The notes under the pieces were generated by a model. That model saw only the letters and a list, made by a program, of their open reading frames with translations. It was not told where the DNA came from and searched no databases. Made by a program: the position numbers and the translations under genes. A stretch of 32,000 bases of DNA from Nostoc sp. PCC 7120 = FACHB-418 (GTDB taxonomy: Bacteria; Cyanobacteriota; Cyanobacteriia; Cyanobacteriales; Nostocaceae), in NCBI RefSeq assembly GCF_000009705.1, contig NC_003272.1:3060001-3092000 (forward strand), given 5' to 3'. Below, one piece after another: positions 1,251-29,232 of this stretch; the stretch's first letter is position 1, and every line of letters starts with the position of its first letter.

Positions 1251-1350
1251 TACATTTACGTGATTCAGGTTTGTGAAGTGTGAGCTATATCATTTCCTAA
1301 TTTCAGGTATTTATTAAACTTATTACCGATATTTTAGGAAAAGCAAAGAC

Positions 1351-1746
1351 GTGAACCGTTTCCAAAAGCTATCCTCAATCGTGTTCCTGTTATTAGCTTT
1401 CATCTATCCGCCTACATTAGTTGAAGCTAAAGAGAATACTCTCAATAATGCTTTGAATGAGCAAACTATTGAAGCAGAAACAAACTTAGTCGAAGGTGAA
1501 CACAAAGAAACATTAATAGCTCACCGACAATATAGACGGCGTTATCACGGAAGAAGACGGGCTAGACGGCATTACCACAGACGGCGCTATCATAATCGGC
1601 ATTATTACAGGCATTACTATCGTAATGGACGTTATCGTGGTCGGCATTATCGTAGAGCAAATTATCGCGGTCAATACTATCGTCGTGGAGGATGGGAACT
1701 TGTTCGTGACCGTCATGGACGATTAATGTATGATTGGCAGCGTTAA
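1351..1746 (+). CDS. Secreted hypothetical protein with an Arg/Tyr/His-rich low-complexity tail
   Basis: GTG start preceded by AGGAAA. Sec-type signal (KLSSIVFLLLAFIYPPTLVEA|K), then an acidic segment. The tail has 23 Arg, 13 Tyr and 8 His in 57 residues. The first ~67 aa align without gaps to the downstream ORF at 2018-2389. Confidence 0.6.
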   Translation: MNRFQKLSSIVFLLLAFIYPPTLVEAKENTLNNALNEQTIEAETNLVEGEHKETLIAHRQYRRRYHGRRRARRHYHRRRYHNRHYYRHYYRNGRYRGRHYRRANYRGQYYRRGGWELVRDRHGRLMYDWQR

Positions 1747-2017
1747 TACCTAAAGGGTGTGTAGATAACCAGAAAGCTATGATTTGCGTAGGTTGGGGAC
1801 GTTATCAACAATCAGTCCCCACCCATCATCAAAGATGGTTTGATTGGTAAGTAATTTAACTGAATTATTCATGATTTATATCTGTGGTATGAGTTGCTTC
1901 TCTATTATTTGATGAACTTATAGGTAACAAAAATATCATTCTGAAGATAGAGACATAGGTATTTACTAAAATTCTATGTTTATCACTGGTATAAATTTTT
2001 TACTAAAGCTTAACAAA

Positions 2018-2389
2018 ATGAAAAGTGTTACCAAACTATCTTCAATCGCCATATTACTTTGTAGCTTAGTTTATCCCCCCCTGCTCACTGAGGCAAAAGC
2101 TACCACTATCAACAATAGTATTGATCAACAAAGTATTGAAACAGATGCAAACCTAATTAGTAATCAAACTGAAGGTTTTTTACTTGCTCAACGTCGGAGT
2201 GTGCGTAGAAGATATGTCCGTCCAGTTGTGCGTGGAAGATATACTCGTCCAGTTGTGCGTGGAAGATATACTCGTCCAGTTGTACGTGGAAGATATACTC
2301 GTCCAGTTGTACGTGGAAGATATGTCCGTCCAGTTGTGCGTGGAAGATATGTCCGTCCGGTCGTGCGTGGAAGATATATCCGTCGTTAA
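2018..2389 (+). CDS. Secreted hypothetical protein with six RPVVRGRY[T/V/I] nonapeptide repeats
   Basis: ATG at 2018 gives MKSVTKLSSIAILLCSLVYPPLLTEA|K, a signal peptide paralogous to ORF 1351-1746. The C-terminus is six in-frame 27-nt repeat units plus one degenerate unit. Confidence 0.6.
   Translation: MKSVTKLSSIAILLCSLVYPPLLTEAKATTINNSIDQQSIETDANLISNQTEGFLLAQRRSVRRRYVRPVVRGRYTRPVVRGRYTRPVVRGRYTRPVVRGRYVRPVVRGRYVRPVVRGRYIRR
2192..2380 (+). repeat. 27-bp tandem repeat: six near-perfect copies plus one degenerate leading copy, in frame within the CDS
   Basis: CGTCCAGTTGTGCGTGGAAGATATACT repeats head to tail from 2219 to 2380. Copies differ mainly in GTG/GTA and ACT/GTC/ATC, plus two silent changes in the sixth copy. 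A degenerate unit lies at 2192-2218. Confidence 0.95.
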
Positions 2390-2537
2390 TACCAATTCAT
2401 CATTAAGAAAGACCGATTTAGTCTAAATTTCTGGGTTTGGATATGTTAAATCCTTTGGGGGAAGAATATCAGGATTCAGGGCTGAAGATTTAGTAGTTAG
2501 TGGCTAGTTATTCCACTAACCACTAAGCTACCAAGTA

Positions 2538-3536
2538 CTAGTGACTTGCTACTACTTCTAGACGAGCTAGTCTTTCTGCTAGTAGTGTTTCTAACTCTTC
2601 TAGTGCTTTGGTAAAACCTTTGATACCTTCATCTAGTTTGTCATAAGCCATGCGATCGGCAGCGTGCATTTTGTCAAATGTAGCTTTATCGATGGAAATC
2701 TTGTCTATATCCAAAGTTGCTGCTTTAGCTGGGTCGAGTTTACGGGGTAGTTCACCAATGGTGGCTTGTAGTTCACCTAATAAACCAGGGGAAATCGTTA
2801 GTAAATCGCTACCTGCTAGTTCAGTAATTTCACCAATGTTACGGAAACTAGCTCCCATAACTTCGGTCTTATAGCCAAACTTCTTGTAGTAGTTGTAAAT
2901 TGTAGTAACTGATAATACACCTGGGTCTTCCGCAGAAGGGTAGCTATCACGTCCGGTTTCTTTTTTGTACCAGTCGAGAATCCGACCAACGAAGGGAGAA
3001 ATTAAGGTGATACCGGCTTCGGCACAAGCGATCGCCTGATGCAATCCAAACAACAATGTCAAGTTACAATGAATACCCTCTTTTTCCAGAATTTCCGCAG
3101 CCTTGATACCTTCCCAAGTAGAGGCAATTTTAATCAAAACCCGTTCTGGGCCAATACCAGCCGCTTTATATTGAGCGATTAATTCCCGTGCTTTGGTGAT
3201 AGTAGCTTCAGTATCGTAAGACAAGCGGGCATCTACTTCTGTAGAAACGCGACCAGGGATAATTTGTAAAATCTTTAATCCAAAGGATACCGCCAGACGG
3301 TCGAAAGCGAGGGAGACAATTTGACCTTTGCTAGCCCCTGCGCCTGCGTCTTTTTTAGCTTGGAGTAAGGTTTGATCAACAATTTCCTGATATTCTGGCA
3401 TTTTAGCGGCTGCCGTAATCAGAGAGGGATTGGTGGTCGCGTCGCGGGGTGTAAACTTTTCAATTGCTTGAATATCACCTGTATCAGCAACTACTACAGT
3501 CATTTCTCGCAATTGTTCTAGTAGATTTTTAGTCAT
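2538..3536 (-). CDS. tal: Transaldolase
   Basis: Motifs DATTNPSL and KIASTWEG. I chose the second ATG (MTKNLLEQL) because GGAG lies about 8 nt upstream. The ORF track extends to 3548. Confidence 0.92.
3028..3035. repeat. HIP1 octamer GCGATCGC (one example of many)
   Basis: The same octamer also occurs at 64-71, 886-893, 20751-20758, 20953-20960 and many other sites. The highly iterated palindrome is a cyanobacterial genome signature. Confidence 0.9.
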
Positions 3537-3576
3537 AAAATACTCCATGATTTTAGTTTGTTAAGACTTACTTGCT

Positions 3577-3620
3577 TGGTTGCTAGATCCCCGACTTCTT
3601 GAAGTAGTCGGGAATCTGAC
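3577..3620. repeat. Dispersed palindromic repeat, copy 1 (TTGGTTGCT-AGATCCCCGACTTCTTGAAGTAGTCGGGAATCT)
   Basis: Imperfect hairpin in the pyk-tal spacer. A near-identical copy in the same orientation lies at 6653-6697. Confidence 0.85.
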
Positions 3621-3810
3621 CACCGTTAGTTATTGCTTTGGACTAATAAAAAATCCATAACACCTGCGTAAGCCCATTTTGTTTAGGATTTACCCTATCC
3701 CCTCTTCTTCACACCCTTTTTGATTCCTTACAATTCTGATTTTGGCAACTTTTCTTAACCATTGCCCAATTTGGCTAAGAAGCAAAAGCCTCAGACTTAT
3801 TCTAGGAATA

Positions 3811-5241
3811 TTAGGCGGTGATTGGTTGTCCAATAGAATGCACTTTAATTAAACTAGTTGTGCCTGATTTACCAATTGGCACTCCAGAAGTAATAACTAC
3901 CTTGTCACCGTCATGCACCAAACCCGTTCTCACGGCGGTGTTGATGAGATTCATAAACATTTCTTCCGCATTGTGGACTGGTGGGGTTAATAAAGGTTCC
4001 ACACCCCAAGAAAGTGCTAACTGATGGTAGGCGGTTTCGTCGGGGGTCAACGCAAAAATGGGTGTAGTCGGACGATATTTCGACACGAGCTTTGCTGTAC
4101 TCCCTGATGTGGTGTTGCAAAGAATCGCTTTTGCGCCTGTTTCGTAGGCGATACGACAGACCGCTTCAGCTACAGATTCGGTGACACTCAGACCACCTGC
4201 TTCATGGGATAAGCAATGTTTACTACCCTCTTGCAAAGACTTTTCTGTAGTCACGGCGATATCGTGCATAACCTGGACGGCGGCGACGGGATATTGTCCT
4301 ACAGCCGTTTCCCCAGAGAGCATGACGGCATCTGTACCATCGAGAATAGAGTTAGCAACGTCTGTAGCCTCCGCACGGGTGGGATCGGGAGCGCTAATCA
4401 TCGACTCTAGCATTTGCGTTGCTGTAATCACGGGCTTACCAGCTTGGTTGCAACGGCGAATGATGTCCTTTTGAATCAATGGGACTTCATGGATAGGCAT
4501 TTCCACACCCAAGTCACCACGAGCAATCATAATCGCATCAGCAACGTCGATGATAGAATCAATTTGCTCAACGGCTTCTGGACGTTCAATTTTGGCGATT
4601 ACCCGAATAGTTTTCCCCGCCGCTTCAATCATCCGTTGCGCTGGTTCGAGGTCATAAGGCGATCGCACAAAAGACACCGCCACCCAATCTACACTCAAAT
4701 CGATGCCAAAACGCAAATCCTGCAAGTCCTTTTCGGTGATGGAACTGACAGGTAAACGAGTCGCTGGCAGGTTAACACCCTTACGGGTAGAAAGAAGACC
4801 CCCGATTTTGGCAATAGCCCGAATGCGATCGGCATCGCGATCTGTCACAATCAACTTGACACGACCATCATTAATTAAGATTGGTTCCCCAGGTCGTACC
4901 ATTGCGAACAAGGTCGGCAAAGGTAAAGGCAATTCATCAAGACTACTACCCTTTTCTTGCAAGACAAAAGTCACTTCCTGACCAGCCTCTACCATTAACC
5001 CTTCTGGTGGTAAAGTTCCCAAGCGAATCTTCGGCCCGCATAGGTCTTGCATAATCGCCACAGGCTTTTGTCTGTCAGCACTGATTTGCCGCAAATACTG
5101 AGCAGTTTGGGCATGGAAGTCATAAGCTCCATGAGAAAAATTCAGCCGTGCTACATTCATCCCAGCTTCTACCAACGCTTCTAAACGTTCTGGTGCAGAT
5201 GTAGCCGGGCCTACAGTACAGATAATTTTAGTTCGACGCAT
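3811..5241 (-). CDS. pyk: Pyruvate kinase
   Basis: 476 aa. N-terminus MRRTKIICTVGPA, plus the NFSHG and MIARGDLGVE motifs. Confidence 0.93.
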   Translation of the reverse strand: MRRTKIICTVGPATSAPERLEALVEAGMNVARLNFSHGAYDFHAQTAQYLRQISADRQKPVAIMQDLCGPKIRLGTLPPEGLMVEAGQEVTFVLQEKGSSLDELPLPLPTLFAMVRPGEPILINDGRVKLIVTDRDADRIRAIAKIGGLLSTRKGVNLPATRLPVSSITEKDLQDLRFGIDLSVDWVAVSFVRSPYDLEPAQRMIEAAGKTIRVIAKIERPEAVEQIDSIIDVADAIMIARGDLGVEMPIHEVPLIQKDIIRRCNQAGKPVITATQMLESMISAPDPTRAEATDVANSILDGTDAVMLSGETAVGQYPVAAVQVMHDIAVTTEKSLQEGSKHCLSHEAGGLSVTESVAEAVCRIAYETGAKAILCNTTSGSTAKLVSKYRPTTPIFALTPDETAYHQLALSWGVEPLLTPPVHNAEEMFMNLINTAVRTGLVHDGDKVVITSGVPIGKSGTTSLIKVHSIGQPITA

Positions 5242-5248
5242 AGATATT

Positions 5249-5290
5249 GGGGATAGGGGATAGTGAACAGTGAACAGTTACGACTGACTA
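5249..5290. repeat. STRR-like heptamer array (GGGGATA x2, GTGAACA x2, then degenerate heptads)
   Basis: Read directly from the sequence. It lies immediately upstream of the pyk start codon (5241) in the minus-strand sense. Confidence 0.7.
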
Positions 5291-5346
5291 ACTGTTCTAA
5301 CTTTTCGCGTCATGTGGAAAAGTTAACGCCAAACCTAACCCCCCAG

Positions 5347-5410
5347 CCCCCTTCCCTACCAGGGAAGGGGGAGCAATCAAAGCCTCTCTCCTTGCAGGGG
5401 AGAGGTTTGG
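5347..5410. repeat. GC-rich double hairpin of a dispersed-repeat type
   Basis: CCCCCTTCCC-tacca-GGGAAGGGGG (5347-5371) is a perfect 10-bp stem. It is followed by CCTCTCTCC-ttgca-GGGGAGAGG. Both lie downstream of the gap1 stop (5473) on the minus strand. Confidence 0.6.
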
Positions 5411-5472
5411 AGAGGGGTTTTCCAGATACAGTGAAAAGTCAGACTAACTGCTCACCGAATAACTGATAACTG

Positions 5473-6525
<1,053 letters not shown>

Positions 6526-6652
6526 TCAAATTAATCTGGGCGTTTACCCTAGCTTCAACACTGCAAATAGCCAGGTGAATTTTAGTCTGACTGAGCTGAT
6601 CGTGACAGCCCCAGACGCTTTAAGCCCAATTACTTGGCATATTTTAAGGTTT

Positions 6653-6697
6653 TGGTTGCGAGATCCCCGACTTCTTCAAGAAGTCGGGGATCTGAGA
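6653..6697. repeat. Dispersed palindromic repeat, copy 2 (perfect 16-bp arms AGATCCCCGACTTCTT / AAGAAGTCGGGGATCT)
   Basis: The palindrome spans 6661-6693. It begins 14 nt downstream of the xfp stop on the minus strand, so it may act as a terminator or RNA-processing hairpin. Confidence 0.88.
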
Positions 6698-6710
6698 TCC
6701 TCCCTAGTCC

Positions 6711-9092
6711 CTAATACGGCCATTGCCAGTCACTAATGTCTGGCATATCTTCGCCGTGTTGGGAAATGTAGTGTTTGTGTTCGATGAGCTTGTCTTGTAG
6801 TTGTTGCTTGACGTAGGCTGCTTTGTAGCCCAGTTTTGGTACGCGATCAATTACGTCCATGACTAGATGGAAGCGATCGAGGTCGTTCAGCACAACCATA
6901 TCAAAGGGAGTGGTGGTGGTTCCTTCTTCCTTGTAACCGCGCACATGGAGGTTGTTGTGGTTGGGTTGGCGATAGGTTAGGCGATGGATTAGCCAAGGGT
7001 AGCCATGAAAGGCGAAAATAATGGGTTTGTCGGTAGTGAAAATAGTCTCGAAGTCTTTGGGATTTAGACCGTGGGGATGTTCTGTTTTGGGTTGTAGTGT
7101 CATCAAATCGACAACGTTGACTACCCGTACTTTTAAATCCGGGAAGTGTTGGCGCAAAATGTCTACAGCTGCCAAAGTTTCTAGGGTGGGAACATCTCCG
7201 GCGCAAGCCATGACTACATCTGGTTCACTACCTTGGTCGTTGCTAGCCCATTCCCAAATACCAATGCCTTTGGTGCAGTGTTTAACTGCTGCATCCATGT
7301 CTAGGAATTGTAATGCTGGCTGTTTACCTGCAACTATGACGTTGACATAGTTACGGCTTCTTAAACAGTGGTCTGTCACCGATAATAAGGTGTTGGCATC
7401 GGGGGGAAGATATACCCGAATGATCTCAGATTTTTTGTTAACTACATGATCGATAAATCCGGGGTCTTGGTGAGAGAATCCGTTATGGTCTTGTCGCCAA
7501 ACGTGGGAGGTCAGTAGGTAGTTGAGGGAAGCCACAGGTCTGCGCCATGAAATGTGGCGGGTGGTTTTCAACCATTTGGCGTGCTGGTTGAACATGGAGT
7601 CAATGATATGGATAAAGGCTTCGTAACAGGAGAAGAATCCATGACGACCTGTCAGCAGATATCCTTCTAACCATCCTTGACAGCAGGTTTCACTGAGGAT
7701 TTCCATCACCCGACCACTGGGATCAAGGTGGTCATCTTCTGGTAGCTTTTGAGCAACCCAAGTTCTATCGGTGACATCTAAGACGGCGTTGATGCGATTT
7801 GATGCTGTTTCATCAGGGCCGAAGACACGGAAGTTACGGCTGTCTAGGTTGAGCTTCATCACATCCCGCAGGAATTTGCCTGTGACTTGGGTGGCTTCCG
7901 CCATGACTCTACCTGGTTGGGGAACTTCAATGGCGTAGTTTTGAAAATCTGGCATCACCAGGTCACGCAACAGGATACCGCCGTTAGCGTGGGGATTATC
8001 TCCCATACGCCGATCGCCTTTTGGTGCTAATTCTGCTAATTCTGGTATGAGTTTGCCGTTAGCATCAAAGAGTTCTTCTGGTTTGTAACTCTTGAGCCAT
8101 TCTTCTAGTAATTTCAGGTGTTCTGGATTACCTGTAACATTGCCAAAGGGTACTTGGTGCGATCGCCAGTAATCTTCTGTTTTCTTGCCATCTACTTCTT
8201 TTGGCCCTGTCCATCCTTTGGGAGTCCTGAGGATAATCATCGGCCACTGGGGACGCTTGCTAAATCCATGTACACGGGCTTCTCTTTGGATACTGTGAAT
8301 TTCCGCAATCACTGTATCTAAAATAGCTGCCATCTGTTGATGCACAAGGGCGGGATCAGAACCTTCGACAAAATAAGGTTTGTATCCATAGCCGACAAAT
8401 AAGCTTTCTAACTCTTCGTAGCTTAACCGTGCTAGGACTGTGGGGTTAGCAATTTTATACCCATTGAGGTGGAGAATTGGCAGTACTGCGCCATCACTAG
8501 CCGGGTTGAGGAACTTGTTGGAATGCCAACTAGTAGCTAATGCGCCTGTTTCCGCTTCCCCATCACCAACAACAGCCGCCACAATTAAATCAGGATTATC
8601 AAAAGCCGCACCAAAGGCATGAACAAGAGCATAACCCAGTTCACCACCCTCATGAATTGAACCAGGGGTTTCCGGTGCTACGTGGCTGGGAATACCACCA
8701 GGGAAGGAGAACTGTTTGAAAAGTTTCTGCATCCCGCCAGCATCTTGGGAGATGTTGGGGTAATACTCGCTGTATGTCCCTTCTAGATAAGTATTCGCTA
8801 CCAGTCCAGGCCCGCCGTGACCAGGGCCGGCGATATAAACCATACTCTGGTCGTATTTCTTGATAATCCGATTGAGATGGACATAAATAAAGTTCAGTCC
8901 TGGCGTAGTTCCCCAGTGTCCTAAGAGACGGGGTTTAACGTGTTCTTTGTTGAGTGGTTCTCTTAGTAAGGGATTATCAAGTAGATAAATTTGTCCAACT
9001 GACAAATAGTTGGCTGCACGCCAGTAGGCGTTGATTTTATGCAGTTCTTCGTCTGTTAAAGGCTTTATCTGTGGAGGACTTGCTAAAGTCAT
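6711..9092 (-). CDS. xfp: Xylulose-5-phosphate/fructose-6-phosphate phosphoketolase
   Basis: About 793 aa. HEGGELGY signature and a ThDP-enzyme layout. I chose the ATG at 9092 (MTLASPP), which has GGAG 6-7 nt upstream. The ORF track begins at a TTG at 9104. Confidence 0.93.
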
Positions 9093-9442
9093 ATCAATCT
9101 CCAATTACACAATTATTTTGCCGGATTCGTTAGTATGCCAGTTTAGTGATCTACGGGATGCGATTCATCTTACTTGTGACGAATTTTTCCAGTGGCTAAC
9201 AGGGACTTTAGGCGTGATTAGCCAATTTTATACATTTGTACCCATCTAAAATAAGGCTAAAGAAATTCTGTTACTGGCTCCCCTGAAAGGTTAACAGACT
9301 TCACATTTTAGCGAGTAATTTTTAACATTAATTTTAGGTAATGTTAAGAAAGTCACAACGTAATTCAAAAAACAAATAACTACTATTTGTTTTTCGGTAT
9401 GACTAAATGGAGCTTTTGAGACAATTGCCAAAAATTGTTAAT

Positions 9443-17738: not shown

Positions 17739-18758
17739 ATGTTGGAAATTCTGACGAAAGAACAATACGATGAAGTTGTAGAAGGCAGCTTGCAGATGTT
17801 ACAGGCTGTAGATCCTAGTCAGTCCTTCGACTTTGTATATAAATGGGAAAGTCACTTTACTCGTACTTCCTATCAGGAAGTGCAGCTACGCCCAGGATTA
17901 TCTCTAGAAATTTTTGATAAAACTCAATATCGCCAAGTAAATATTCAAAATAATCATGACGAAGAATATCCACTAATCGCAAAATTTTATCTAGCTGGAA
18001 ATCATAGTGTAATTTGCCCTGGTATTGCAGGAGTTAGGGAAAAATATCAAGAAACAGGAGGCAATAATTATTTATTTTACTTACCAGATATTGAAGAAAT
18101 CGAGCAATATTTTGCAGGCGATCGCTATTATATAATCAGAATTATTTTTGACATCAATTTCCTCAGAAATTTTGTTACTGGGTTGACACCTGTTCCCAAT
18201 CAATTGCAACCTTTGCTAGAAAGTGATCATCCACCGCGTTTTCATCTGCCTGTGGGTAAAATCACGCCCACCATGCAAACTATACTATCACAGCTTTTAA
18301 ATGCACCCTATCAAGGTATGGTGCAACGCATTTATCTAGAAAGCAAGGTGCTGGAACTGCTGGCTTTGCAATTAGCGCAAATATTGGAAACTGAACAAAA
18401 TCGCCAAACTTTAATTAACCTCAAAGCCTCTGACATTGAAAGAATTTATCACGCCAAAGACATTTTAATTAGTCAATATGATAATCCGCCGACACTGCTA
18501 GATTTAGCCAGAAGAGTAGGTGTCAATGACAATAAATTAAAATTAGGTTTTCGGGAAGTCTTTGGTACAACAGTCTTTGGCTACTTACATAACTACCGCA
18601 TGGAAATGGCGCAAATGCTTTTACAGGAAGGTAAACAAAGTGTAGCTGAGGTAGCATCTCATGTGGGATATTCTAACCCAGGGCATTTTGCAGCCGCATT
18701 CAAGCGGAAATTTGGCATGAGTCCGAAAGTGTGTAGATTAGGAAGAAAAACGGCTTAA
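17739..18758 (+). CDS. AraC family transcriptional regulator (PchR-like, siderophore-responsive type)
   Basis: 339 aa. C-terminal double HTH (LLDLARRVGVNDNKLKLGFREVFG...VAEVASHVGYSNPGHFAAAFKRKFGMSP). Paralogous to ORF 22897-23886. Confidence 0.9.
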   Translation: MLEILTKEQYDEVVEGSLQMLQAVDPSQSFDFVYKWESHFTRTSYQEVQLRPGLSLEIFDKTQYRQVNIQNNHDEEYPLIAKFYLAGNHSVICPGIAGVREKYQETGGNNYLFYLPDIEEIEQYFAGDRYYIIRIIFDINFLRNFVTGLTPVPNQLQPLLESDHPPRFHLPVGKITPTMQTILSQLLNAPYQGMVQRIYLESKVLELLALQLAQILETEQNRQTLINLKASDIERIYHAKDILISQYDNPPTLLDLARRVGVNDNKLKLGFREVFGTTVFGYLHNYRMEMAQMLLQEGKQSVAEVASHVGYSNPGHFAAAFKRKFGMSPKVCRLGRKTA

Positions 18759-18905: not shown

Positions 18906-19817
18906 ATGAAGTTTTTCTTCCCCCAAACAGCCCCACTAATTAACTGGGAACGTCCCTATGAATTTCTCGACAAGGAATTTCAACAAATAGCCAGGGAAGC
19001 GGAACAGGGTAGAAGATACGCCGATAAATTAGTCAAAGTTTGGCAACTTCAAGGAGAGGAAGTTTGGTTATTGATTCATGTAGAAATCCAAGCCAAACCA
19101 GAAGATGACTTTGCCGAAAGGATGTTTTCTTATAACCTGCGAATCTTTGACAAATTTGGTCAACCCGCCATCAGTCTAGCAATTTTGTGTGATGCTGACT
19201 CAACTTGGCGACCAAATCAATACAGTTACAATTATCCTGACTGTAGTTTGGACTTTCGATTTGGTAGTGTCAAGCTACTCGATTATCAAAATCGATGGGC
19301 AGAATTAGAAGCTAGCGATAATCCTTTTGCTACGGTGTTAATGGCACATTTAAAGACACAGCAAACCACTAAGCAACCAGGAGAACGCAAAGCATGGAAA
19401 TTTAGCTTAATTCGGCGACTGTACGCACAAGGACTACAAGAAAGGGATATTCGTAACCTTTATCGTTTTATTGATTGGGTTATGATTTTACCAAAAGCGT
19501 TAGAAGCAGAATTTTGGCAAGAGTTTAAACAATTTGAGCAGGAGCGTACCATGAGTTACATTACCACAGGTGAGCGCATTGGCTACGAGCGTGGCAAAGA
19601 AGAAGGGCAACTAAAACAAGCGCAAGCACTTGTACTACGGTTACTGCAAAAACGGGTGGGAGATTTACCCGCAGAAGTTCGGGAACAGATTCAAAGTCTT
19701 TCTCTAGAACAGTTGGCAACACTGGGTGAGGCTTTATTAGATTTTAGTGCGATCTCTGACTTATTCAACTGGCTAGACGCAAATCACGCTAATGATAATC
19801 ATGGTGTACAAGCTTGA
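18906..19817 (+). CDS. Rpn/YhgA-like PD-(D/E)XK family protein with a DUF4351-like C-terminus; possibly 5'-truncated by an in-frame stop
   Basis: E-x-Q nuclease-type motif (LLIHVEIQAK). The C-terminal module is LRLLQKRVGDLPAEVREQIQSLSLEQLATLGEALLDF. An upstream in-frame ATG at 18831 is separated from this ORF only by a TAA at 18876-18878. Confidence 0.75.
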   Translation: MKFFFPQTAPLINWERPYEFLDKEFQQIAREAEQGRRYADKLVKVWQLQGEEVWLLIHVEIQAKPEDDFAERMFSYNLRIFDKFGQPAISLAILCDADSTWRPNQYSYNYPDCSLDFRFGSVKLLDYQNRWAELEASDNPFATVLMAHLKTQQTTKQPGERKAWKFSLIRRLYAQGLQERDIRNLYRFIDWVMILPKALEAEFWQEFKQFEQERTMSYITTGERIGYERGKEEGQLKQAQALVLRLLQKRVGDLPAEVREQIQSLSLEQLATLGEALLDFSAISDLFNWLDANHANDNHGVQA

Positions 19818-19910
19818 AGATAAAGGATTTAGTAGGCGATCGCTAACACTAAGCTTCCCTCTAACGCATATTTGCTGCTAAAATCCTCCAAAGGTTTAGG
19901 CAGACTTTTC

Positions 19911-20747
19911 ATGCGCCGAGATTCGATATTTTATAAGCTGTTTCAACAATCACCAAGTTTATTATTTCAACTATTGACAAACCCGCCAGAAAATGCAGAT
20001 GAATATAAATTTGATTCTGTAGCAGTCAAAGAACCTAAATTTGAAATTGATGGTGTATTTTTGCCGCCCGAAAGCGCAAATCCGGGTACAGTTTATTTCT
20101 GTGAGGTGCAGTTCCAGGAAGATAAAAGGCTTTACGAACGATTATTTGCGGAATCTCACTTATATTTTTATCGTAACCGGAATAGATTTAATGACCTACA
20201 TATAGTCATTATCTACCCATCCCGCAGCATCGAACAAGATGAAGTTCGTCCTTTTCGGAGTCTGTTGAATGGAGACCAGGTAAATCGCATATATTTAGAT
20301 GAGTTGGGTGATATTCGTTCTTTACCTGTGTGGGTTGCATTGATGGTTTTAACTACCCTGGAAGAAAATCGTGCAACCGAAGAAGCTAGGTATTTGCTAG
20401 CTAGGAGTCAGCAGGAAGTACCTCAAGGTGAAAATCGTGCCATCATAGATTTATTAACAACGATTATGGTGTACAAGTTTGAAGGCAAGAGTCAACGTGA
20501 GGTAGAAGAGATGTTAGGAATTACACTGCAAGAAACGCGGGTTTATAGAGAAATTAGGGAAGTAGAAGCGCGATCGCTGATTTTGCGTCAATTAAATCGT
20601 CGTGTAGGGGAGTTACCGCAGGAAGTGCGATCGCGTATCGAATCCCTTCCCTTAGAACAATTGGAAAATCTCGGTGAAGCGTTGCTTGATTTTACCAGCA
20701 TGGCTGATTTAGATGCTTGGTTGTCGGGGTTGGATGCTAATTCTTAA
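19911..20747 (+). CDS. Rpn-like/DUF2887-type PD-(D/E)XK protein with a DUF4351-like C-terminus
   Basis: ATG at 19911 (MRRDSIFYKLFQQSP). Motifs IDGVF...VYFCEVQFQ. The C-terminus LRQLNRRVGELPQEVRSRIESLPLEQLENLGEALLDF is paralogous to the preceding gene. Confidence 0.8.
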   Translation: MRRDSIFYKLFQQSPSLLFQLLTNPPENADEYKFDSVAVKEPKFEIDGVFLPPESANPGTVYFCEVQFQEDKRLYERLFAESHLYFYRNRNRFNDLHIVIIYPSRSIEQDEVRPFRSLLNGDQVNRIYLDELGDIRSLPVWVALMVLTTLEENRATEEARYLLARSQQEVPQGENRAIIDLLTTIMVYKFEGKSQREVEEMLGITLQETRVYREIREVEARSLILRQLNRRVGELPQEVRSRIESLPLEQLENLGEALLDFTSMADLDAWLSGLDANS

Positions 20748-20749
20748 GC

Positions 20750-20869
20750 AGCGATCGCGGTTATCAAACATTAATTAATGAGGCATTGTCAGAATATATT
20801 CGCAATCACGATTTGAAAGAGGATTTGCGTCATATTTTCCGAGAAGAATTAGAGCGATTAAAGCAGTAG
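20750..20869 (+). pseudogene. Remnant of a BrnA-type (ribbon-helix-helix) antitoxin C-terminus
   Basis: A frame with no start codon reads ...SSDRGYQTLINEALSEYIRNHDLKEDLRHIFREELERLKQ*. The GYQTLINEAL..YI string is the characteristic C-terminal motif of BrnA-family antitoxins. No partner toxin gene is present. Confidence 0.5.
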
Positions 20870-20913
20870 TTTTTCATCGTTAAACCTTGTAGATTGATTT
20901 TCTGTGTCGGTTT

Positions 20914-20948
20914 TGTTGGGTTGCACTACGTTTCACCCAACCTACAAG
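20914..20948. repeat. Dispersed cyanobacterial hairpin repeat (GTAGGTTGGGTGAAACGTAGTGCAACCCAACA type)
   Basis: Stem GTTGGGT / ACCCAAC at 20915-20921 and 20935-20941. It overlaps the last codons and stop of the chimeric ORF. A related GTAGGTTGGGG...CCCCACC hairpin lies at about 1786-1822. Confidence 0.6.
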
Positions 20949-22737
20949 ATATGCGATCGCACTGGTTTTTTTGAGAATTGATAAGGTACTTTTCGAGATC
21001 ATCCAGGATCGCATTAATCGCGAAAATATCGGGTTCATGCCAATGTTCACCGACAAAATAGACCTGATTGCGTTGAACAGCATTTAGCTGTTGCCATAGG
21101 GGTCTACGCTGAAGCTTATCTAAGGTTGTCTTGGCTCGATTTCCCCAAAGCGTAAAAAAGAGAACATCGCCATCAATATCAGATAACATCTCTTCCGAAA
21201 TATTTTCTAGGTAAAACAAATCTCCCATTTGCGATCGCGGACGTTGCAGACCAATTTCTTCCAGAATCGTCCCTGAATAATGCTTTTGCCCATACCCCCA
21301 GAATATACCTTCTCCAGTGGCTACGACAGAAACCGTAAGGGTATGGCGACGATCACCCAGTGCTTGCTTGAGTTGTTCAATCCGTTGCGAAGAGCGATCA
21401 ATAAGCTGCTGACTCACTGTTTCTTTGCCTAAAATCTGAGCAAGTTCTTGTAGTTCATACTTCCAACCAATGGGAGGAAAAGGAGTTTGGATATTATTAG
21501 AATGTTCGTAGCCCGCAATCAAGCGATAAAGTACAGTCTTATCTGCGGTGAGAGGGCCTGATAGATCGATGCTAGGCTGATAGTATCCGTAATTTCCTGC
21601 CTCAAACGCAATTTGGTAATAGGGTTCACCCAGAGGTTGCTTCGTAATGGTGTTAATTACTCCACCAGGTTCCACACCTCCGAATAGAACTGAAGCGGGT
21701 CCTTTGAGAACTTCCACTTGCTCGATCGTTCCGATGGGAACAATGTCAATATAATCCGCATCAGGAACCCCGTTGCGTAAGTTTTCGGTGCCTCCCACTG
21801 CAAATCCTTGAGTGAATCCTCGAATAGTCTTAATTCCTGAAGGCGCACCATAAATGGTTCCACCGTCAACAACACCACTGACTGTTTGCACTGCCTCATT
21901 CACGCTTCTGACCTTGCGATCGCGCAATACTTCCTGGGGTACAACCTGAATCGATTGGGGAATATCCCGCAATGGCGTATCCGTCCGCGTCGCTGTACTT
22001 GCATTCGGTACGCCATAACTATCTGCTTCCCCCGTCACCACCAACTCAATTGGGTCATCCTGCTGCGCTGCGGGTTGTTCTTCCGGTTTCTCTTCTGCTG
22101 GTTTTTCTTCGGTTGGTGTTTCCGGGGTTTGTGCAGATATGGCTTTCGATGCAACTGCAAAAATCAACCCCGTATCATCATCAAATAACTCAACCGCAGG
22201 TAAGGCTTTCTCTCCAACCACCGTTACCCGCACGGTATTCACATCAATATTTGTAGCTGTAATTTCGGTAATTCCCTCGATGGGCTTTTCTGACTTAAAC
22301 GTGAAAGCATCCCCATTGGGTAAACGTAATTGCCCACCAGCCACATCAACGATAAAATTATTCCCCGTACTGCGGTTAGCAACTTGCAGTTTATCTCCTG
22401 CGGTTGTCTCTAAAATTACCTCCACACCTTTATCTGTGGGATTGGCTTTGACTCCCGTAATTGCGACACTCCCCTGTTGCTCATCTTGGGAAGGGGGGTT
22501 GGTGTTAATGGGTGCGGGTTGCTGTACTAATAATTTTGCGCTAGTTGCAGGAAGTTCTATTTCGCTGAGTTGGGGAATTGGCAACCCTTTATCTTCCACT
22601 TTTGTTGTAGGGGGAGAAGTGGGAAGGCGAGATTTTCCCTGCGCCCATCCTGGCTGGATTACCAAAGCACTCAAACATCCTGATAAAATTACTAATAGTC
22701 TGAAATTACAATTAGTAGAAAATTGCCAAAATTTCAT
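20926..22737 (-). pseudogene. Chimeric ORF: TonB-dependent receptor N-terminus fused in frame to the C-lobe of a siderophore-binding protein
   Basis: The first ~420 aa are a signal peptide, an AMIN-like domain, a Pro/Glu linker, a plug (DTPLRDIPQSIQVVPQEVL...) and the first barrel strands. The last ~180 aa align to the C-terminal half of the binding protein at 28246-29232 (LGDRRHTLTVSVV.., EEIGLQRP, RPLWQQLNAVQRNQVYFV, ILDDLEKYL). The junction is at about 21465-21505. Confidence 0.65.
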
Positions 22738-22896
22738 ATTTTATCCTCAAAATAGCTCCTCACACGCCAACTTCCACTCTCTGTCATCACAGAAAGCCCA
22801 AGAATTCAAGCTTATTGCAAATAATTACTAAATATTTGTAAAAGTGAGTATACAAAATAGCCAGGAAAAAAATCTATCTATATTTCGTCACCACTA

Positions 22897-23886
22897 TCAA
22901 GATACGGACTTTTTCCCCATTAAACATTCTTTGGGACGGATACCATACTGCCGCTTAAACACGCTGGCGAATAAACTTAAATGAGAATAACCCACAATAT
23001 TCGCCACTTCTGCGACAGTAAGCTTTCCTTCCCGCAAAAGTTTTTCGGCTTGTTCCATCCGCATAACAGTTAGGTAACTAAATACAGTCGTACCAAACAG
23101 TTCCCGGAAACCACGTCGAAGGGTGCGATCGCTGACTCCAACTATTTGTGCTAACTCTAATGATGATGGTGGATTGTCCATCCGCGATCGCAAAACTTCC
23201 CTAGCCTGATGAATTCGCGCAATCGTATCTGGTCTCAGTGATGGTGTTTGCTTTTTCTCTTCATTCTCCAAAAGGGGAGCTAACTGCAAGGCGATTAACT
23301 CAAATATTTTCCCCTGCAAATATATTTGTTTTGTCACCCCATGAAAGGGACAATTGATAATTTGTTGCGCTACTCCATATATTGTTGGGGTACTTTGGGG
23401 ATAAAATACTGGATGTAAATCATCATCCTTAAATAATTTCCGCAGTTGTGGTATCAAGTCTCCATCTTTTCCTGGAAACAAATTTGCTAGGAGTTGACGG
23501 GATACCCCAATGGTCAACCCCACAAGGCGTTGATTTTTTTGGATTTGAGCAACAGTTTTCTGTTGAATCCCACCACCACAAACCAAAGTATAACTTTCTC
23601 CACATTGACCGCGTTCAGTCACAATTTTTCCTGAAAGCAAAACATCAAAATGTAGATCATGTTGACCTTCAGGAGATGTTATAAATACATCATCGTTATA
23701 TTCCAAATCAGTAAAGTCCAGCCAGATATCGGAATGCAAATCCATTTCTTGACGATAACCTTCACCCAATTTCCGTGGTACTTTCCATAAAAATTCAGTC
23801 AACTTCGACCCAGAATCAAATTCGTTTGTGTGTATAGGCTCACCAAGAAGTTCATTCCATTCGTCATGGGTTAGAGTGACTGTCAT
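22897..23886 (-). CDS. AraC family transcriptional regulator (PchR-like), paralog of 17739-18758
   Basis: I chose the ATG at 23886 (MTVTLTHDEW); the ORF track starts at a TTG at 23913. The C-terminal HTH pair is LELAQIVGVSDRTLRRGFRELFG...VAEVANIVGYSHLSLFASVFKRQYGIRP. Confidence 0.9.
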   Translation of the reverse strand: MTVTLTHDEWNELLGEPIHTNEFDSGSKLTEFLWKVPRKLGEGYRQEMDLHSDIWLDFTDLEYNDDVFITSPEGQHDLHFDVLLSGKIVTERGQCGESYTLVCGGGIQQKTVAQIQKNQRLVGLTIGVSRQLLANLFPGKDGDLIPQLRKLFKDDDLHPVFYPQSTPTIYGVAQQIINCPFHGVTKQIYLQGKIFELIALQLAPLLENEEKKQTPSLRPDTIARIHQAREVLRSRMDNPPSSLELAQIVGVSDRTLRRGFRELFGTTVFSYLTVMRMEQAEKLLREGKLTVAEVANIVGYSHLSLFASVFKRQYGIRPKECLMGKKSVS

Positions 23887-23911
23887 AGCTGGTTTTAAGT
23901 TGACATTATGC

Positions 23912-23928
23912 AAATAATGATATTATTT
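23912..23928. promoter_or_regulatory. Fur-box-like AT palindrome AAATAAT-gat-ATTATTT
   Basis: Perfect 7-3-7 inverted repeat about 26 nt upstream of the AraC ATG (minus strand). It resembles the GATAAT-hexamer architecture of Fur operators. Confidence 0.35.
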
Positions 23929-24318
23929 CTCAATAAAGAAGAAAAGAGCGATCGCAGCATTTTTCCAGACTGATTTGCTTGTAGTAAGGGCTTTAGCCCT
24001 GGATTTATGCAACTTAAATGCTGATTAGCTTATTCCCTGAGAGAAAAGAGACAGTGCTGGGACTAGGCGGTTAAGAACCCTCTAATGTCAAAGATTGGTC
24101 ATAATTGAAGAGAGCCAAATTTTACAAGGGTTGCTGAATTTGGGAAATTAATATAACTCAGAGAAATAGGTGCGTGGAATTTCTCCCTGGGGTAAAAGAA
24201 GAAGCCGGAAAGCCGAGTAGATTTTATCCCAGTCCCTCATCCCTCCCGCTTGGGATCAAAAATCTCCGTCTGTGAGTAGACTTCTATATCGGAAATTACG
24301 TACACTCTTTCTCAAGAT

Positions 24319-24338
24319 ATTTGCAAATTAATTGCAAT
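24319..24338. promoter_or_regulatory. Perfect 10-bp palindrome ATTTGCAAAT followed by ATTGCAAT, upstream of the receptor gene
   Basis: It lies about 35-50 nt upstream of the ATG at 24371. Related ATTGCAAAT sites occur at 17622-17630 and 22814-22822, in the other two iron-gene promoters. Confidence 0.4.
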
Positions 24339-24370
24339 ATAAAGTTCGGATAGTGAGAAGAGTGAGCGGT

Positions 24371-26995
24371 ATGAAGTCTTGGCAACAGAAGGAAATCATT
24401 TCAGCAAGTCTTGTGTTTTCGTGCATATCATTGCTAGTGCAACCAGCCGTTGCTGAAACTCGATCGCATCATGATATTAGCAGCACCCAGCTGATGGCGC
24501 AACAATCAGCAGTCAAAGTTACAGGTGTGAAAGTCAACTCTACAGATAAAGGGATTGAAGTTCTCTTACAAACTCCCCAAGCAGAAGCATTGCAACCTGT
24601 AACTAAAACTGAAGCCAATAGTTATATTGCAGATATTCCCAATACAGTGTTAGAACTCCCAGAGGGTAAAGATTTCAGCGTGAATAATCCTGTGGCTGGG
24701 ATTGTGTCTGTAAATGTGACTCAAGCTGATGCTAATACTATCCGAGTGACGGTAACGGGAGAGTCACAAGTCCCAACCGTGGAATTATTTGATAGTGATG
24801 AAAGTCTGATTTTTAGCTTCACACCTGTTGTTTCAACGACACAAACACCAACACAACCAGAACAGCCAACTAGTGAAGAAACACCAGATGCAACAACATC
24901 TGAAAGCGACTCATCAATTGAACTGGTCGTGACAGCAACGCGTACAGAAGAAGATATCCAAAATGTACCGCGTTCTGTAACTGTGATTACTCGTGAGCAG
25001 ATTGAGGATCAAGCAAGGTTAAGCACTAACTTAGCTGACATTCTGGCAAAAACTGTTCCTGGCTTTGGTTCACCAATTAGTCGGACTGATACATTCGGGC
25101 AAAATTTACGGGGTCGCAACATCTCAGTTTTAATTGACGGAGTTCCCCAAAATGGTAATTTACAATCATTTTCTGCACAATTGACCACTATTGATCCCAG
25201 TGCAATTGAACGGATTGAAGTTGTGCGTGGCCCGAATGCGATCTATGGTGGTCAAGCAACTGGTGGTGTAGTCAATATTATTACTAAGAGGCCAAGCGGT
25301 CAAAAACTAACTTCCACAACAAATATTGGTTTGGATACCTCCTTAACTCGTTCCGAAGATAGTTTTGGTTATAACCTTTCCCATCAAATTGCGGGGACAG
25401 AAGGCAAATTTGATTATACTGTGGGTTTTTCGCTGGTGACAACTGCGGGTTTTTATGATGCAGAAGGCGATCGCATTGCTAATTTTGCAGGTGATGATGA
25501 TAGCACCAAAATCAACGCCTTGGCTAAAATAGGAGTTGAATTATCGCCAGAACAACGTCTGCAATTCACTTTCAATCACTTTAATCAGCAACAAAATAGT
25601 GATTTTATTTCCGACCCGGCCGTTGATGATATTCCTGGTATTCAAAAATCTCGCGCCTTGAAGCTACCGGAAGGAACAACTGTGATTGGTGCTGATCAAG
25701 GGATTTCTATCACAAATACTTTACTGAGCTTAAATTACAATAACGACAATATTTTCGGTAGCAAACTTCAGGCTCAAGCTTACTATCGTAACTATAATTT
25801 TGCTGGGGGAATTCCTGATGATAACCGGGGTGGTAGCTTAAGAGCGATTACCGATTCAGAAGGGGGTACAGAACAATTAGGCGGAAGATTGCAAGTTGAG
25901 ACACCCTTCAACTCTCAAAAAACAGTGAGTTTACTTTGGGGTGTGGACTATCAAAATGAGCGTAGTTCTCAAAAATTTAATATTTTCGATCCTGGGGAAT
26001 TTGACGCATCAGGGGGTCGAATCTTTCGCAAGATTGAAGAGCGAGTTTTTGTTCCCGAATATGACTTTAGAGAACTGGGTGTATTTGGTCAATTGCAATG
26101 GGAAGTTAGTGATAACCTGCGTTTAAGTGGTGGCTTGCGTTATGTGAATATAGGTGTGAGTTTAGACGACTACATCACCGCCGATTTTCCCCGTCGGAAT
26201 ATGCAAGGGGGCGATCGCAGTCTTGATTCTACAGTATTTAATGCAGGTATTGTCTATAAATTTACCCCAGAAGTTAGTGTATTTGCCAGCTTTTCTCAAG
26301 GCTTCTCAGTTCCCGATTTAGGTCGTGTCTTCCGACGACCCCCAGCAGGTGTAGTCAATATTTTAAACTCTCTGCAACTGACAGAACCACAGAAAGTAGA
26401 CAACTATGAAATCGGCATTCGCGGTCAATGGGATAATGTCCAAGCATCCTTGTCTGGTTTCTACAACTATTCTGATCTAGGTTCGGCTTTTAACTTTAAC
26501 CGTAGCACTGATTTTCTAGAGACTGTTCGCGCTCCTCAAAAAGTTTACGGTATAGAGGCTGCGGTTGATGTCCAACCTACTGAGGGTTGGAGAGTGGGGG
26601 GTACGGCGACTTGGATAGAAGGTGAAAATGATGCAAATAATGATGGTCAATATCTAGCACTCAACAGTATTACAGTCCCACCATTGAAGTTGACCGCTTA
26701 TGTAGAAAACCAAACCCTCAAAGGTTGGCGGAACAGATTACAATTACTTTACTCAGGCGATCGTGATCGGGCTTTTGAAGATGGTGTAGAAGATGGTAAA
26801 ATCAGCAGCTTCGTCACCGTAGACTACATCAGCAGCATCAAAATAGGTCAAGGGGAACTACAAATAGGCATTCAAAACCTCTTCAATAACCAATATTTCC
26901 CAGTTTACTCACAATACTTTGCACCTTTCTTTGATAGTGCTAACTACGCAGGTCAAGGTAGAACCTTAAGCGTTGGGTATCGGATTATTTGGTAA
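24371..26995 (+). CDS. TonB-dependent siderophore receptor with an N-terminal AMIN-like domain
   Basis: ATG at 24371 gives a signal peptide (MKSWQQKEIISASLVFSCISLLVQPAVA). It is followed by an AMIN-like domain, a Thr/Pro/Glu linker, a plug (IELVVTATRTEEDIQNVPRSVTVITREQIE), a long beta-barrel and a C-terminal ...GYRIIW. Confidence 0.92.
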   Translation: MKSWQQKEIISASLVFSCISLLVQPAVAETRSHHDISSTQLMAQQSAVKVTGVKVNSTDKGIEVLLQTPQAEALQPVTKTEANSYIADIPNTVLELPEGKDFSVNNPVAGIVSVNVTQADANTIRVTVTGESQVPTVELFDSDESLIFSFTPVVSTTQTPTQPEQPTSEETPDATTSESDSSIELVVTATRTEEDIQNVPRSVTVITREQIEDQARLSTNLADILAKTVPGFGSPISRTDTFGQNLRGRNISVLIDGVPQNGNLQSFSAQLTTIDPSAIERIEVVRGPNAIYGGQATGGVVNIITKRPSGQKLTSTTNIGLDTSLTRSEDSFGYNLSHQIAGTEGKFDYTVGFSLVTTAGFYDAEGDRIANFAGDDDSTKINALAKIGVELSPEQRLQFTFNHFNQQQNSDFISDPAVDDIPGIQKSRALKLPEGTTVIGADQGISITNTLLSLNYNNDNIFGSKLQAQAYYRNYNFAGGIPDDNRGGSLRAITDSEGGTEQLGGRLQVETPFNSQKTVSLLWGVDYQNERSSQKFNIFDPGEFDASGGRIFRKIEERVFVPEYDFRELGVFGQLQWEVSDNLRLSGGLRYVNIGVSLDDYITADFPRRNMQGGDRSLDSTVFNAGIVYKFTPEVSVFASFSQGFSVPDLGRVFRRPPAGVVNILNSLQLTEPQKVDNYEIGIRGQWDNVQASLSGFYNYSDLGSAFNFNRSTDFLETVRAPQKVYGIEAAVDVQPTEGWRVGGTATWIEGENDANNDGQYLALNSITVPPLKLTAYVENQTLKGWRNRLQLLYSGDRDRAFEDGVEDGKISSFVTVDYISSIKIGQGELQIGIQNLFNNQYFPVYSQYFAPFFDSANYAGQGRTLSVGYRIIW

Positions 26996-28245: not shown

Positions 28246-29232
28246 ATGTCAATTAAAAATAATTTATTTATCAGGGTATTTACCTTCCTGCACCATATAC
28301 TTAATTATCATCAAATTAAGTTAATTTTATTCAGCATCATCACAGCTTTAATAGTTATCGGCTGTGAAATGAGTACACCAAACAATGTCACTATAAATTC
28401 TGTGAATGCAACTTCAGAAATGCGCGTAGTTAAACATACTATGGGCGAAACAAAAATACCTTTGCGTCCACAGAGGGTAGTTGTACTAGGTGGCTTAGAT
28501 AATATTTTAGCTTTAGGGGTAAAACCAATAGCAGCTACAACATTCAGTGATGATAACTTTGCTGATTACTTACAAGATGTAACATCAGGAATTGAAAAAA
28601 TTGGTATTAATGGTCAACCAAATCTAGAAAAGATTTTATATCTCAAACCAGACTTAATTTTAGGTTTTTCTTGGGATGCTGAATTATATGGACAACTATC
28701 GCAAATTGCCCCAACAGTATTGGCAGATCAAGATAGCGATTGGAAAGATTGGTTAAAGAAATATGCGGAAGCAGTTGGAGAAACAGCAAAAGCTGAAAAA
28801 TTGTTGCAAGAATATGATCAAAGAATGGAAAGCCTGCGTCAACAAATGGGAGATACCCTTTCCCAAACCAAAGTATCTTTAGTCAACTTTTGGGCTAATT
28901 TTACTCGTCTTTATATGAATAATTCCTTTGGTGGATCAATCCTCAAAGAAATCGGTTTACCTCGTCCTAAATATCAAGATAAAGATAAAAATCACGAAAA
29001 TATCTCTTTAGAATTAATTCCTCAGATCAATGGTGATGTTATTTTCTTAATTCTTGGAGGACACAATGAATCAAGGTTGAAACAATTTACCAATCATCCT
29101 TTGTGGTCGCAGTTACAAGCTGTACAAAAAAATCAGGTTTATCCAGTTACAGGTGATGTTTGGATTTCTGCATGGGGAATCATTGGAGCTAATCTTGTTT
29201 TGGATGACTTATTCAAATATTTGCTTGAGTAA
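28246..29232 (+). CDS. fecB: Iron-siderophore ABC transporter substrate-binding lipoprotein (FecB/FhuD family)
   Basis: 328 aa with lipobox IVIGC. Cluster-A binding-protein pattern (RVVVLGGLDNILALGVKPI, LKPDLILG, HPLWSQLQAVQKNQVYPV). The symbol is family-level. Confidence 0.86.
   Translation: MSIKNNLFIRVFTFLHHILNYHQIKLILFSIITALIVIGCEMSTPNNVTINSVNATSEMRVVKHTMGETKIPLRPQRVVVLGGLDNILALGVKPIAATTFSDDNFADYLQDVTSGIEKIGINGQPNLEKILYLKPDLILGFSWDAELYGQLSQIAPTVLADQDSDWKDWLKKYAEAVGETAKAEKLLQEYDQRMESLRQQMGDTLSQTKVSLVNFWANFTRLYMNNSFGGSILKEIGLPRPKYQDKDKNHENISLELIPQINGDVIFLILGGHNESRLKQFTNHPLWSQLQAVQKNQVYPVTGDVWISAWGIIGANLVLDDLFKYLLE

Follow-up and report, generated by a model that had tools for sequence, protein, structure and literature searches.

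The all2578 Gene of Nostoc sp. PCC 7120, a Probable Relic of an In-Frame Deletion Between a TonB-Dependent Receptor Gene and a Binding-Protein Gene

Introduction

The relatives of all2578 of Anabaena/Nostoc sp. PCC 7120 include: (i) TonB-dependent receptors of the FhuA/ferrioxamine type, which in Nostocales carry an AMIN extension, (ii) binding proteins of the FecB/FhuD type, and (iii) further incomplete receptor genes (e.g., all2620/all2619, alr2179 and entries deposited as 'plug domain-containing protein'), which have decayed in the same manner, as members of a large family of paralogous receptors. The all2578 gene is itself grouped with all2620, alr2179 and alr4028 as encoding a plug but an incomplete barrel, outside the 22 functional Anabaena receptors (Mirus et al. 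2009, BMC Biol 7:68, PMC2771747). That account of all2578 includes neither a half binding protein at the C-terminus nor a deletion junction, an intact orthologue or an expression test. Here, all2578 is analysed within a 32,000-nucleotide (nt) stretch of the PCC 7120 chromosome (NC_003272.1, positions 3,060,001 to 3,092,000 of the forward strand; hereafter, the window), in which it is a single open reading frame (ORF) that joins the front of a receptor to the C-terminal lobe (C-lobe) of a binding protein. The gene is most probably a recent deletion chimera that survives as a non-functional relic.

All2578 shares with the AMIN-extended receptors the signal peptide, AMIN domain, TonB box, plug and start of the barrel. 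Its best non-self match is P0002, an 892-residue receptor with an identity of 95% across the initial 70% of the query; compared to receptors of this type, All2578 misses about 480 barrel residues, including the ...SWEF end. The P0002 receptor is encoded on L001, a 5325-bp JGI metagenome contig that has the undeleted arrangement and is about 98% identical at the locus. With the FecB/FhuD-type proteins P0124 and Alr2583, All2578 shares the inter-lobe helix and C-lobe (97% and 40% identity, respectively) but not their own signal peptide or the whole N-lobe of 141 residues. While other truncated receptors of Nostocales are split or cut by stop codons, all2578 was fused by a deletion to the gene that follows, with the frame kept.

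Domain Architecture of the Chimeric ORF

The all2578 ORF has an ATG start, encodes 603 residues and is present in the ORF list of the window. Its end at window base 20926 agrees with the chromosomal location of all2578 (3080925-3082525) given in the table of Flaherty et al. 2011. The parts of the ORF are as follows.

20926 to 22737, minus strand: whole chimeric ORF, all2578 of Anabaena/Nostoc sp. PCC 7120 (Pfam AMIN, Plug and Peripla_BP_2)
22642 to 22737, minus strand: Sec-type signal peptide, residues 1-32 (MKFWQ...LLVILSGCLSALVIQPGWA/QG; read from the sequence, with a putative cleavage site)
22156 to 22452, minus strand: AMIN domain, residues 96-194 (Pfam PF11741, E=8e-15)
22030 to 22050, minus strand: TonB-box-like motif IELVVTG, residues 230-236 (read from the sequence)
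21658 to 21972, minus strand: Plug domain, residues 256-360 (Pfam PF07715, E=1e-19, profile positions 2-107 of 107)
21487 to 21657, minus strand: start of the beta-barrel, residues 361-417, ending ...YRLIAGYEHSNNIQ, the last receptor-derived sequence (FhuA alignment, TIGR01783 positions 1-157, collinearity with L001 to base 2051)
21486 to 21487, minus strand: deletion junction Q417/T418 (blastn jump from L001 base 2051 to 3928, base-level view, MAFFT gap of 1876)
20962 to 21486, minus strand: binding-protein-derived part, residues 418-592 (inter-lobe helix and C-lobe), equal to residues 142-316 of the intact 320-residue protein
20926 to 20961, minus strand: read-through tail CDRISCRLGET and stop codon, the product of a second deletion of 93 bp

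The receptor-derived head retains the features of a receptor N-terminus. The signal peptide differs from that of the intact L001 receptor by a single substitution (F12L), and a plug that matches its profile over nearly the full length is preceded by the IELVVTG motif. This motif is also present in the intact L001 receptor and in paralogues, and its position directly ahead of the plug suggests that it is a TonB box. In comparison with solved structures, the head maps to residues 23-204 of FhuA, which form the plug and the barrel start, and the best matches of the receptor part are FetA, FhuA and FoxA. The tail maps to residues 130-297 (of 303) of YfiY and 127-269 of FeuA. Similarity of both parts is also found to proteins encoded nearby: residues 87-371 match the N-terminus of the receptor encoded at 24332-26995 (36% identity, E=2e-44), and residues 425-586 match residues 166-327 of the binding protein encoded at 28246-29232 (40% identity, E=5e-29). 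The head and tail similarities are far beyond chance. A preliminary description of the locus had read all2578 as one ORF in which about 420 receptor residues are followed by a tail that aligns with the C-terminal half of the protein at 28246-29232, and the Pfam matches and alignments bear this out, with the two parts at residues 1-417 and 418-592.

Neither part is complete. The Pfam search of All2578 gives no match to the barrel family TonB_dep_Rec_b-barrel (PF00593). With the receptor model TIGR01783, All2578 reaches 121.4 bits, below the cutoff of 223.5, and matches only positions 1-157 of 649; the intact L001 receptor reaches 408.9 bits over positions 1-649. The C-terminus of All2578 (...SCRLGET) is without the aromatic barrel-end residue, and that of the L001 receptor reads ...SISWEF. 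On the binding-protein side, residues 424-563 match only the C-terminal part of Peripla_BP_2 (PF01497), at profile positions 94-232 of 235. The deletion has taken away residues 1-141 of the intact protein, and with them its own export signal (MVLRRFIMLAIGTILTITLMAAC...). Thus, with the N-lobe and so half of the ligand cleft removed, the product is predicted to form no two-lobed cleft. It is likewise predicted to be unable to form a 22-strand barrel, as the preliminary description had proposed, and judging from its domain content would be neither a transporter nor a binding protein.

The Intact Relative and the 1876-bp Deletion

The intact arrangement of the genes is exemplified by L001. In this contig, a partial AraC-family gene (3-659), the receptor gene (819-3497, 892 residues) and a gene for a Peripla_BP_2 protein (3505-4467, 320 residues) follow one another in one orientation, and a brnA/brnT-like pair comes next on the opposite strand. 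The AraC, receptor and binding-protein genes are likewise separate in a metagenome-assembled genome (MAG) of Cyanosarcina, which is more distant (72-77% identity). Comparison of L001 with the window by blastn gives three blocks.

L001 1 to 2051: 95.8% identity to window 23555 to 21487
L001 3928 to 4452: 97.5% identity to window 21486 to 20962
L001 4546 to 4761: 98.1% identity to window 20966 to 20751

Between the first and second blocks, the window is without L001 bases 2052-3927, which is exactly 1876 bp and appears as a single gap by blastn, in the base-level view and by MAFFT. The segment lost consists of receptor codons 412-892 and the stop codon, the 7-bp spacer, and codons 1-141 of the binding-protein gene, which encode the signal peptide and N-lobe. 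At the junction, codon abuts codon (...AAT AAT ATC CAA / ACT CCT TTT..., or N-N-I-Q417 / T418-P-F), and any product would have a fusion-spanning peptide (e.g., LIAGYEHSNNIQTPFPPIGWK). The receptor and binding-protein genes of L001 are one base out of register, and 1876 equals 3x625+1; thus, the frames are rejoined in all2578 because the register offset of one base matches the length of the deletion (1 mod 3). The in-frame join is a 1-in-3 outcome of chance for which selection is unnecessary.

The L001 comparison also refines the earlier model. The undeleted arrangement that was expected in a related strain is present on L001, and the junction, which had been placed at about 21465-21505, is located at 21487/21486. 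The proposal of one in-frame deletion holds insofar as the barrel and N-lobe were lost in a single 1876-bp event; the loss of a middle gene does not, as the ancestral receptor and binding-protein genes are 7 bp apart with no gene between them.

The binding-protein gene has also lost its native end (...KNHD), as a second deletion, of 93 bp (L001 4453-4545), took out the stop codon and the four codons ahead of it; all2578 reads on from there for 11 codons (CDRISCRLGET) to a new stop. Compared to its close and intact orthologue, the locus is therefore disrupted by both the 1876-bp and the 93-bp deletion. One observation from L001 concerns the same site: a mini-ORF of 29 codons at 4459-4548 on the plus strand (MTKSTLFICQSCCFLENHPEARSQSPVG, by hand translation) overlaps the stop codon of the binding-protein gene (ATGACTAA) and nearly matches the extent of the 93 bp that are missing from the window. 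This mini-ORF may be the remnant of a gene for a Cys-rich protein.

The ends of the 1876-bp deletion are not marked by long repeats in L001, and a repeat search around the locus in the window gives only short matches centred on HIP1. The trinucleotide CAA is present at both ends of the deleted segment in L001, and one copy of an 8-bp repeat (CAACCGTT) lies at the left end and the other 17 bp inward of the right end, but neither reproduces the junction to the exact base. The end sequence of the ancestor in the PCC 7120 lineage may have been slightly different from that of L001. The loss is likely due to illegitimate recombination mediated by microhomology or to slippage during replication. In the proposed course of events, the ancestor had a siderophore-uptake cassette of the standard cyanobacterial kind, in which an AraC regulator was accompanied by a FhuA-type TonB-dependent receptor (extended at its N-terminus by an AMIN domain) and by a periplasmic binding protein of the FecB/FhuD type; one such event excised 1876 bp and fused both frames by chance. 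Any product made from the fused frame would be exported to the periplasm, where AMIN domain, TonB box, plug and barrel start would precede the half binding protein.

Distribution of the Fusion

The exact 603-residue protein is found on 22 contigs from NCBI, JGI and ENA assemblies. All eight of the chimera-bearing contigs inspected are 99.9-100% identical to the window across 4-14 kb; these contigs are the PCC 7120 clone re-sequenced and, thus, effectively one clone. In agreement with this restriction, the 90%-identity cluster of the chimera includes only three annotation variants of one sequence (603, 499 and 181 residues). When the C-terminal 186 residues are used as the query, the 120 listed of 125 relatives all have PF01497 alone and are at most 326 residues long, most of them about 320. 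The combination of Plug and Peripla_BP_2 is not seen beyond the chimera among the listed matches of a search with the whole ORF. Scans of genome and metagenome contigs with the intact binding protein, as a source of other fusions or intact orthologues, gave only the Cyanosarcina MAG (72%) and Acaryochloris (25%), from collections that are incomplete in that the PCC 7120 genome and L001 themselves were not returned. Conservation of the fused architecture across diverged genomes under purifying selection, which the preliminary description regarded as the mark of a genuine domain fusion, is thus not what these searches find: the contigs that carry the fusion are those that are 99.9-100% identical to the window.

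Receptor genes with AMIN and Plug only, which encode 345-624 residues, are noted in Nostoc, Anabaena and relatives. These include P0009/P0123 (alr2179 of PCC 7120), P0027, P0046, P0049, P0083, P0085, P0086, P0108 and P0119. Judging from such gene models, truncation of receptor paralogues is apparently frequent among Nostocales.

Transcription and Divergence

The all2578 gene is nearly untranscribed in two published datasets. In RNA sequencing (RNA-seq) at four times after nitrogen step-down, all2578 had 1, 3, 9 and 9 reads, corresponding to 0.04-0.32 reads per kilobase per million mapped reads (RPKM), and the upstream regulator gene all2580 had 0-2 reads (Flaherty et al. 2011). In the study of Gonzalez et al. 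2016, the RPKM of all2578 was 0.000 in the wild type and 0.736 after FurA depletion, and the gene was grouped with those changing less than two-fold.

At this locus, the window and L001 differ by about 2%, and the deletion is therefore considered recent. The exception is one patch in the AMIN-coding region (22188-22505, minus strand), where divergence from L001 is about 11% and an 18-nt indel is present (MAFFT). Over residues 77-91, which lie before the AMIN domain and span the indel, the window is closer to the distant P0004 than L001 is. The patch points to an exchange between receptor paralogues in one of the lineages, by gene conversion or recombination. Ratios of nonsynonymous to synonymous substitution rates (dN/dS) against L001 are as follows.

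Receptor part of all2578: 0.12
Binding-protein part of all2578: 0.24
AraC gene (all2580): 0.13

Interpretation of all2578

The preliminary description regarded all2578 as probably a pseudogene, and the restriction to one clone, the missing barrel and the near-zero transcript levels fit this view. Several points weigh against it. The dN/dS values of both parts are low, and with five outgroups for each part, the branch of the window shows no surplus of derived amino-acid changes (about 7 versus 12). Internal stops and frameshifts are absent from the open 1812-nt frame, and the signal peptide is intact, as is the AraC gene upstream. Iron or copper starvation, which induces many Anabaena receptor genes, is not among the conditions of either RNA-seq dataset; all2578 is also outside the reverse transcription PCR (RT-PCR) panel of Mirus et al. 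2009 (PMC2771747), and the literature searched gave neither expression data for all2578 under iron or copper starvation nor proteomic evidence. The open frame, low dN/dS and lack of a surplus of derived changes are expected from a recent deletion, although constraint fits them as well.

The foremost alternative is that constraint is real and the chimera is a functional new protein, either an exported TonB-box decoy that modulates TonB-dependent uptake or a plug provided in trans to another barrel. Activity can be restored in E. coli from a FhuA cork and barrel that are exported separately, and TonB-box fragments can act as inhibitors of TonB-dependent transport. Consistent with such a role, the frame has stayed open, the signal peptide, TonB-box-like motif and plug are intact, the cognate AraC regulator is preserved, dN/dS is low and derived changes show no surplus. 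By contrast, the chimera is restricted to a single clone with no similar fusion among the relatives listed, and reads are near zero even when FurA is depleted. The native stop codon was lost to the second deletion and the adjoining brnA has decayed, while an in-frame result arises by chance in one of three cases and requires no selection. To our knowledge, no autonomous function has been assigned to half of a two-lobed binding protein. A functional chimera is accordingly judged unlikely. Its most specific form, in which the chimera is expressed and exported under metal starvation, and its TonB box and plug, anchored to the cell wall through AMIN and stabilised by the half binding protein, titrate TonB or plug a barrel in trans, is slightly less likely again; if true, all2578 would encode a regulatory protein observed very soon after it arose.

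A second alternative is that all2578 is one part of a split gene, with the missing barrel encoded elsewhere in the genome and assembling with the All2578 plug. A heterodimer has been discussed for all2620/all2619 of the same genome (Mirus et al. 2009, PMC2771747), but the same study found a gene for the 'missing part' beside all2620 and alr4028 and not all2578. In the window, the sequences on either side of the missing segment follow each other directly, which indicates that the segment was excised rather than locally displaced; a barrel moved elsewhere would leave the interpretation of the all2578 ORF as it is. Among the listed protein matches, moreover, the PCC 7120 chromosome gave only the chimera and the truncated alr2179, a result of protein searches rather than of a direct whole-genome scan. 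A split gene is thus very improbable. An assembly or sequencing artefact, the other objection foreseen in the preliminary description, is hardly credible, as nothing specific speaks for it beyond the generic worry over an unexpected junction, and the identical junction is shared by all 22 contigs from independent NCBI, JGI and ENA assemblies, with the eight inspected being 99.9-100% identical across it.

The reading of all2578 as a deletion-derived relic has consequences for annotation. The gene is deposited as a protein of 603, 499 or 181 residues and is listed as 'ferrichrome-iron receptor' in the table of Flaherty et al. 2011; it is better treated as a deletion-derived pseudogene and excluded from counts of the receptors and binding proteins of PCC 7120. 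The process is an ordinary one, and the truncation of all2578 was already recorded in 2009. What the locus provides is a base-resolved case of decay in the very large receptor and binding-protein family of Nostocales, which shows that chance can give rise to a chimera in frame. It would be of greater interest only if the product were expressed, as a fusion protein of very recent origin.

Further Lesions Downstream of all2578

The sequence beyond the 3' end of all2578 is also rearranged, and the locus as a whole has been rearranged at least three times relative to L001. Three features mark this region.

20750 to 20869, plus strand: 3' remnant of the brnA antitoxin gene, last 38 of 93 codons (translation 97% identical to the C-terminus of L001 BrnA)
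20953 to 20960, palindromic: HIP1 palindrome GCGATCGC, 2-6 nt from the junction of the 93-bp deletion (sequence inspection)
20751 to 20758, palindromic: HIP1 octamer GCGATCGC, coinciding with the truncation point of brnA (sequence inspection)

Similarity to L001 stops at window base 20751, within brnA, according to the blastn end point, and the brnT partner found in L001 is absent from the window at the brnA remnant. The window has 30 HIP1 sites in 32 kb in total; the location of two secondary break points within 0-6 nt of such sites is unlikely to be due to chance (about 1e-3 by a rough post hoc estimate). HIP1 is not present at either end of the main 1876-bp deletion in the intact L001. Deletions associated with HIP1 reportedly occur at the smt locus of Synechococcus PCC 6301; the all2578 locus is similar to this case in its secondary break points but differs in the main deletion.

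Two tandem genes that include DUF4351 (18906-19817 and 19872-20747, both on the plus strand) lie directly where synteny with L001 stops. The second also has DUF2887 and is just at the cutoff of the NCBIfam model for 'Rpn family recombination-promoting nuclease/putative transposase'. These tandem genes may mark an insertion or replacement event.

Upstream Regulator and Neighbouring Loci

The AraC-type neighbour that the preliminary description assigned to all2578 is all2580, which is intact and collinear with L001. The same description credited the chimera with a promoter motif of its own, which is unsubstantiated: a scan for sigma-70 promoters and terminators over 20600-24400 gave 7 promoter-like hits against 7.4 expected, a chance level that neither supports nor refutes the claim. 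The features upstream of all2578 are as follows.

22897 to 23913, minus strand: AraC-family regulator all2580, intact, first gene of the cassette (Pfam HTH_18/HTH_AraC; collinear with the partial L001 gene at 3-659)
22738 to 22896, minus strand: spacer of 159 bp between all2580 and all2578, with a presumed promoter (equal spacing in L001)

On the opposite side of all2580 are the plus-strand neighbours alr2581 (receptor, 24332-26995), alr2582 (Suc_Fer-like) and alr2583 (binding protein, 28246-29232). The all2578 cassette had been thought to be a paralogue of this locus. The two are not close paralogues, as the all2578 cassette is of the FhuA/ferrioxamine type and the alr2581 locus of the RhtA/IutA type, with an identity of only 36-40%.

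Two other gene groups are noted in the window. An 'orphan' regulator of the AraC family at 17739-18758 (plus strand) is 51% identical to all2580 in its C-terminal half and is followed by Rpn-like genes in place of a receptor gene; it is possibly what is left of a further uptake cassette that has decayed. Unrelated to all2578 is a series of central-carbon genes, all on the minus strand (33-9104), which encode acetate kinase, transaldolase, pyruvate kinase, glyceraldehyde-3-phosphate dehydrogenase and phosphoketolase, as identified by Pfam.

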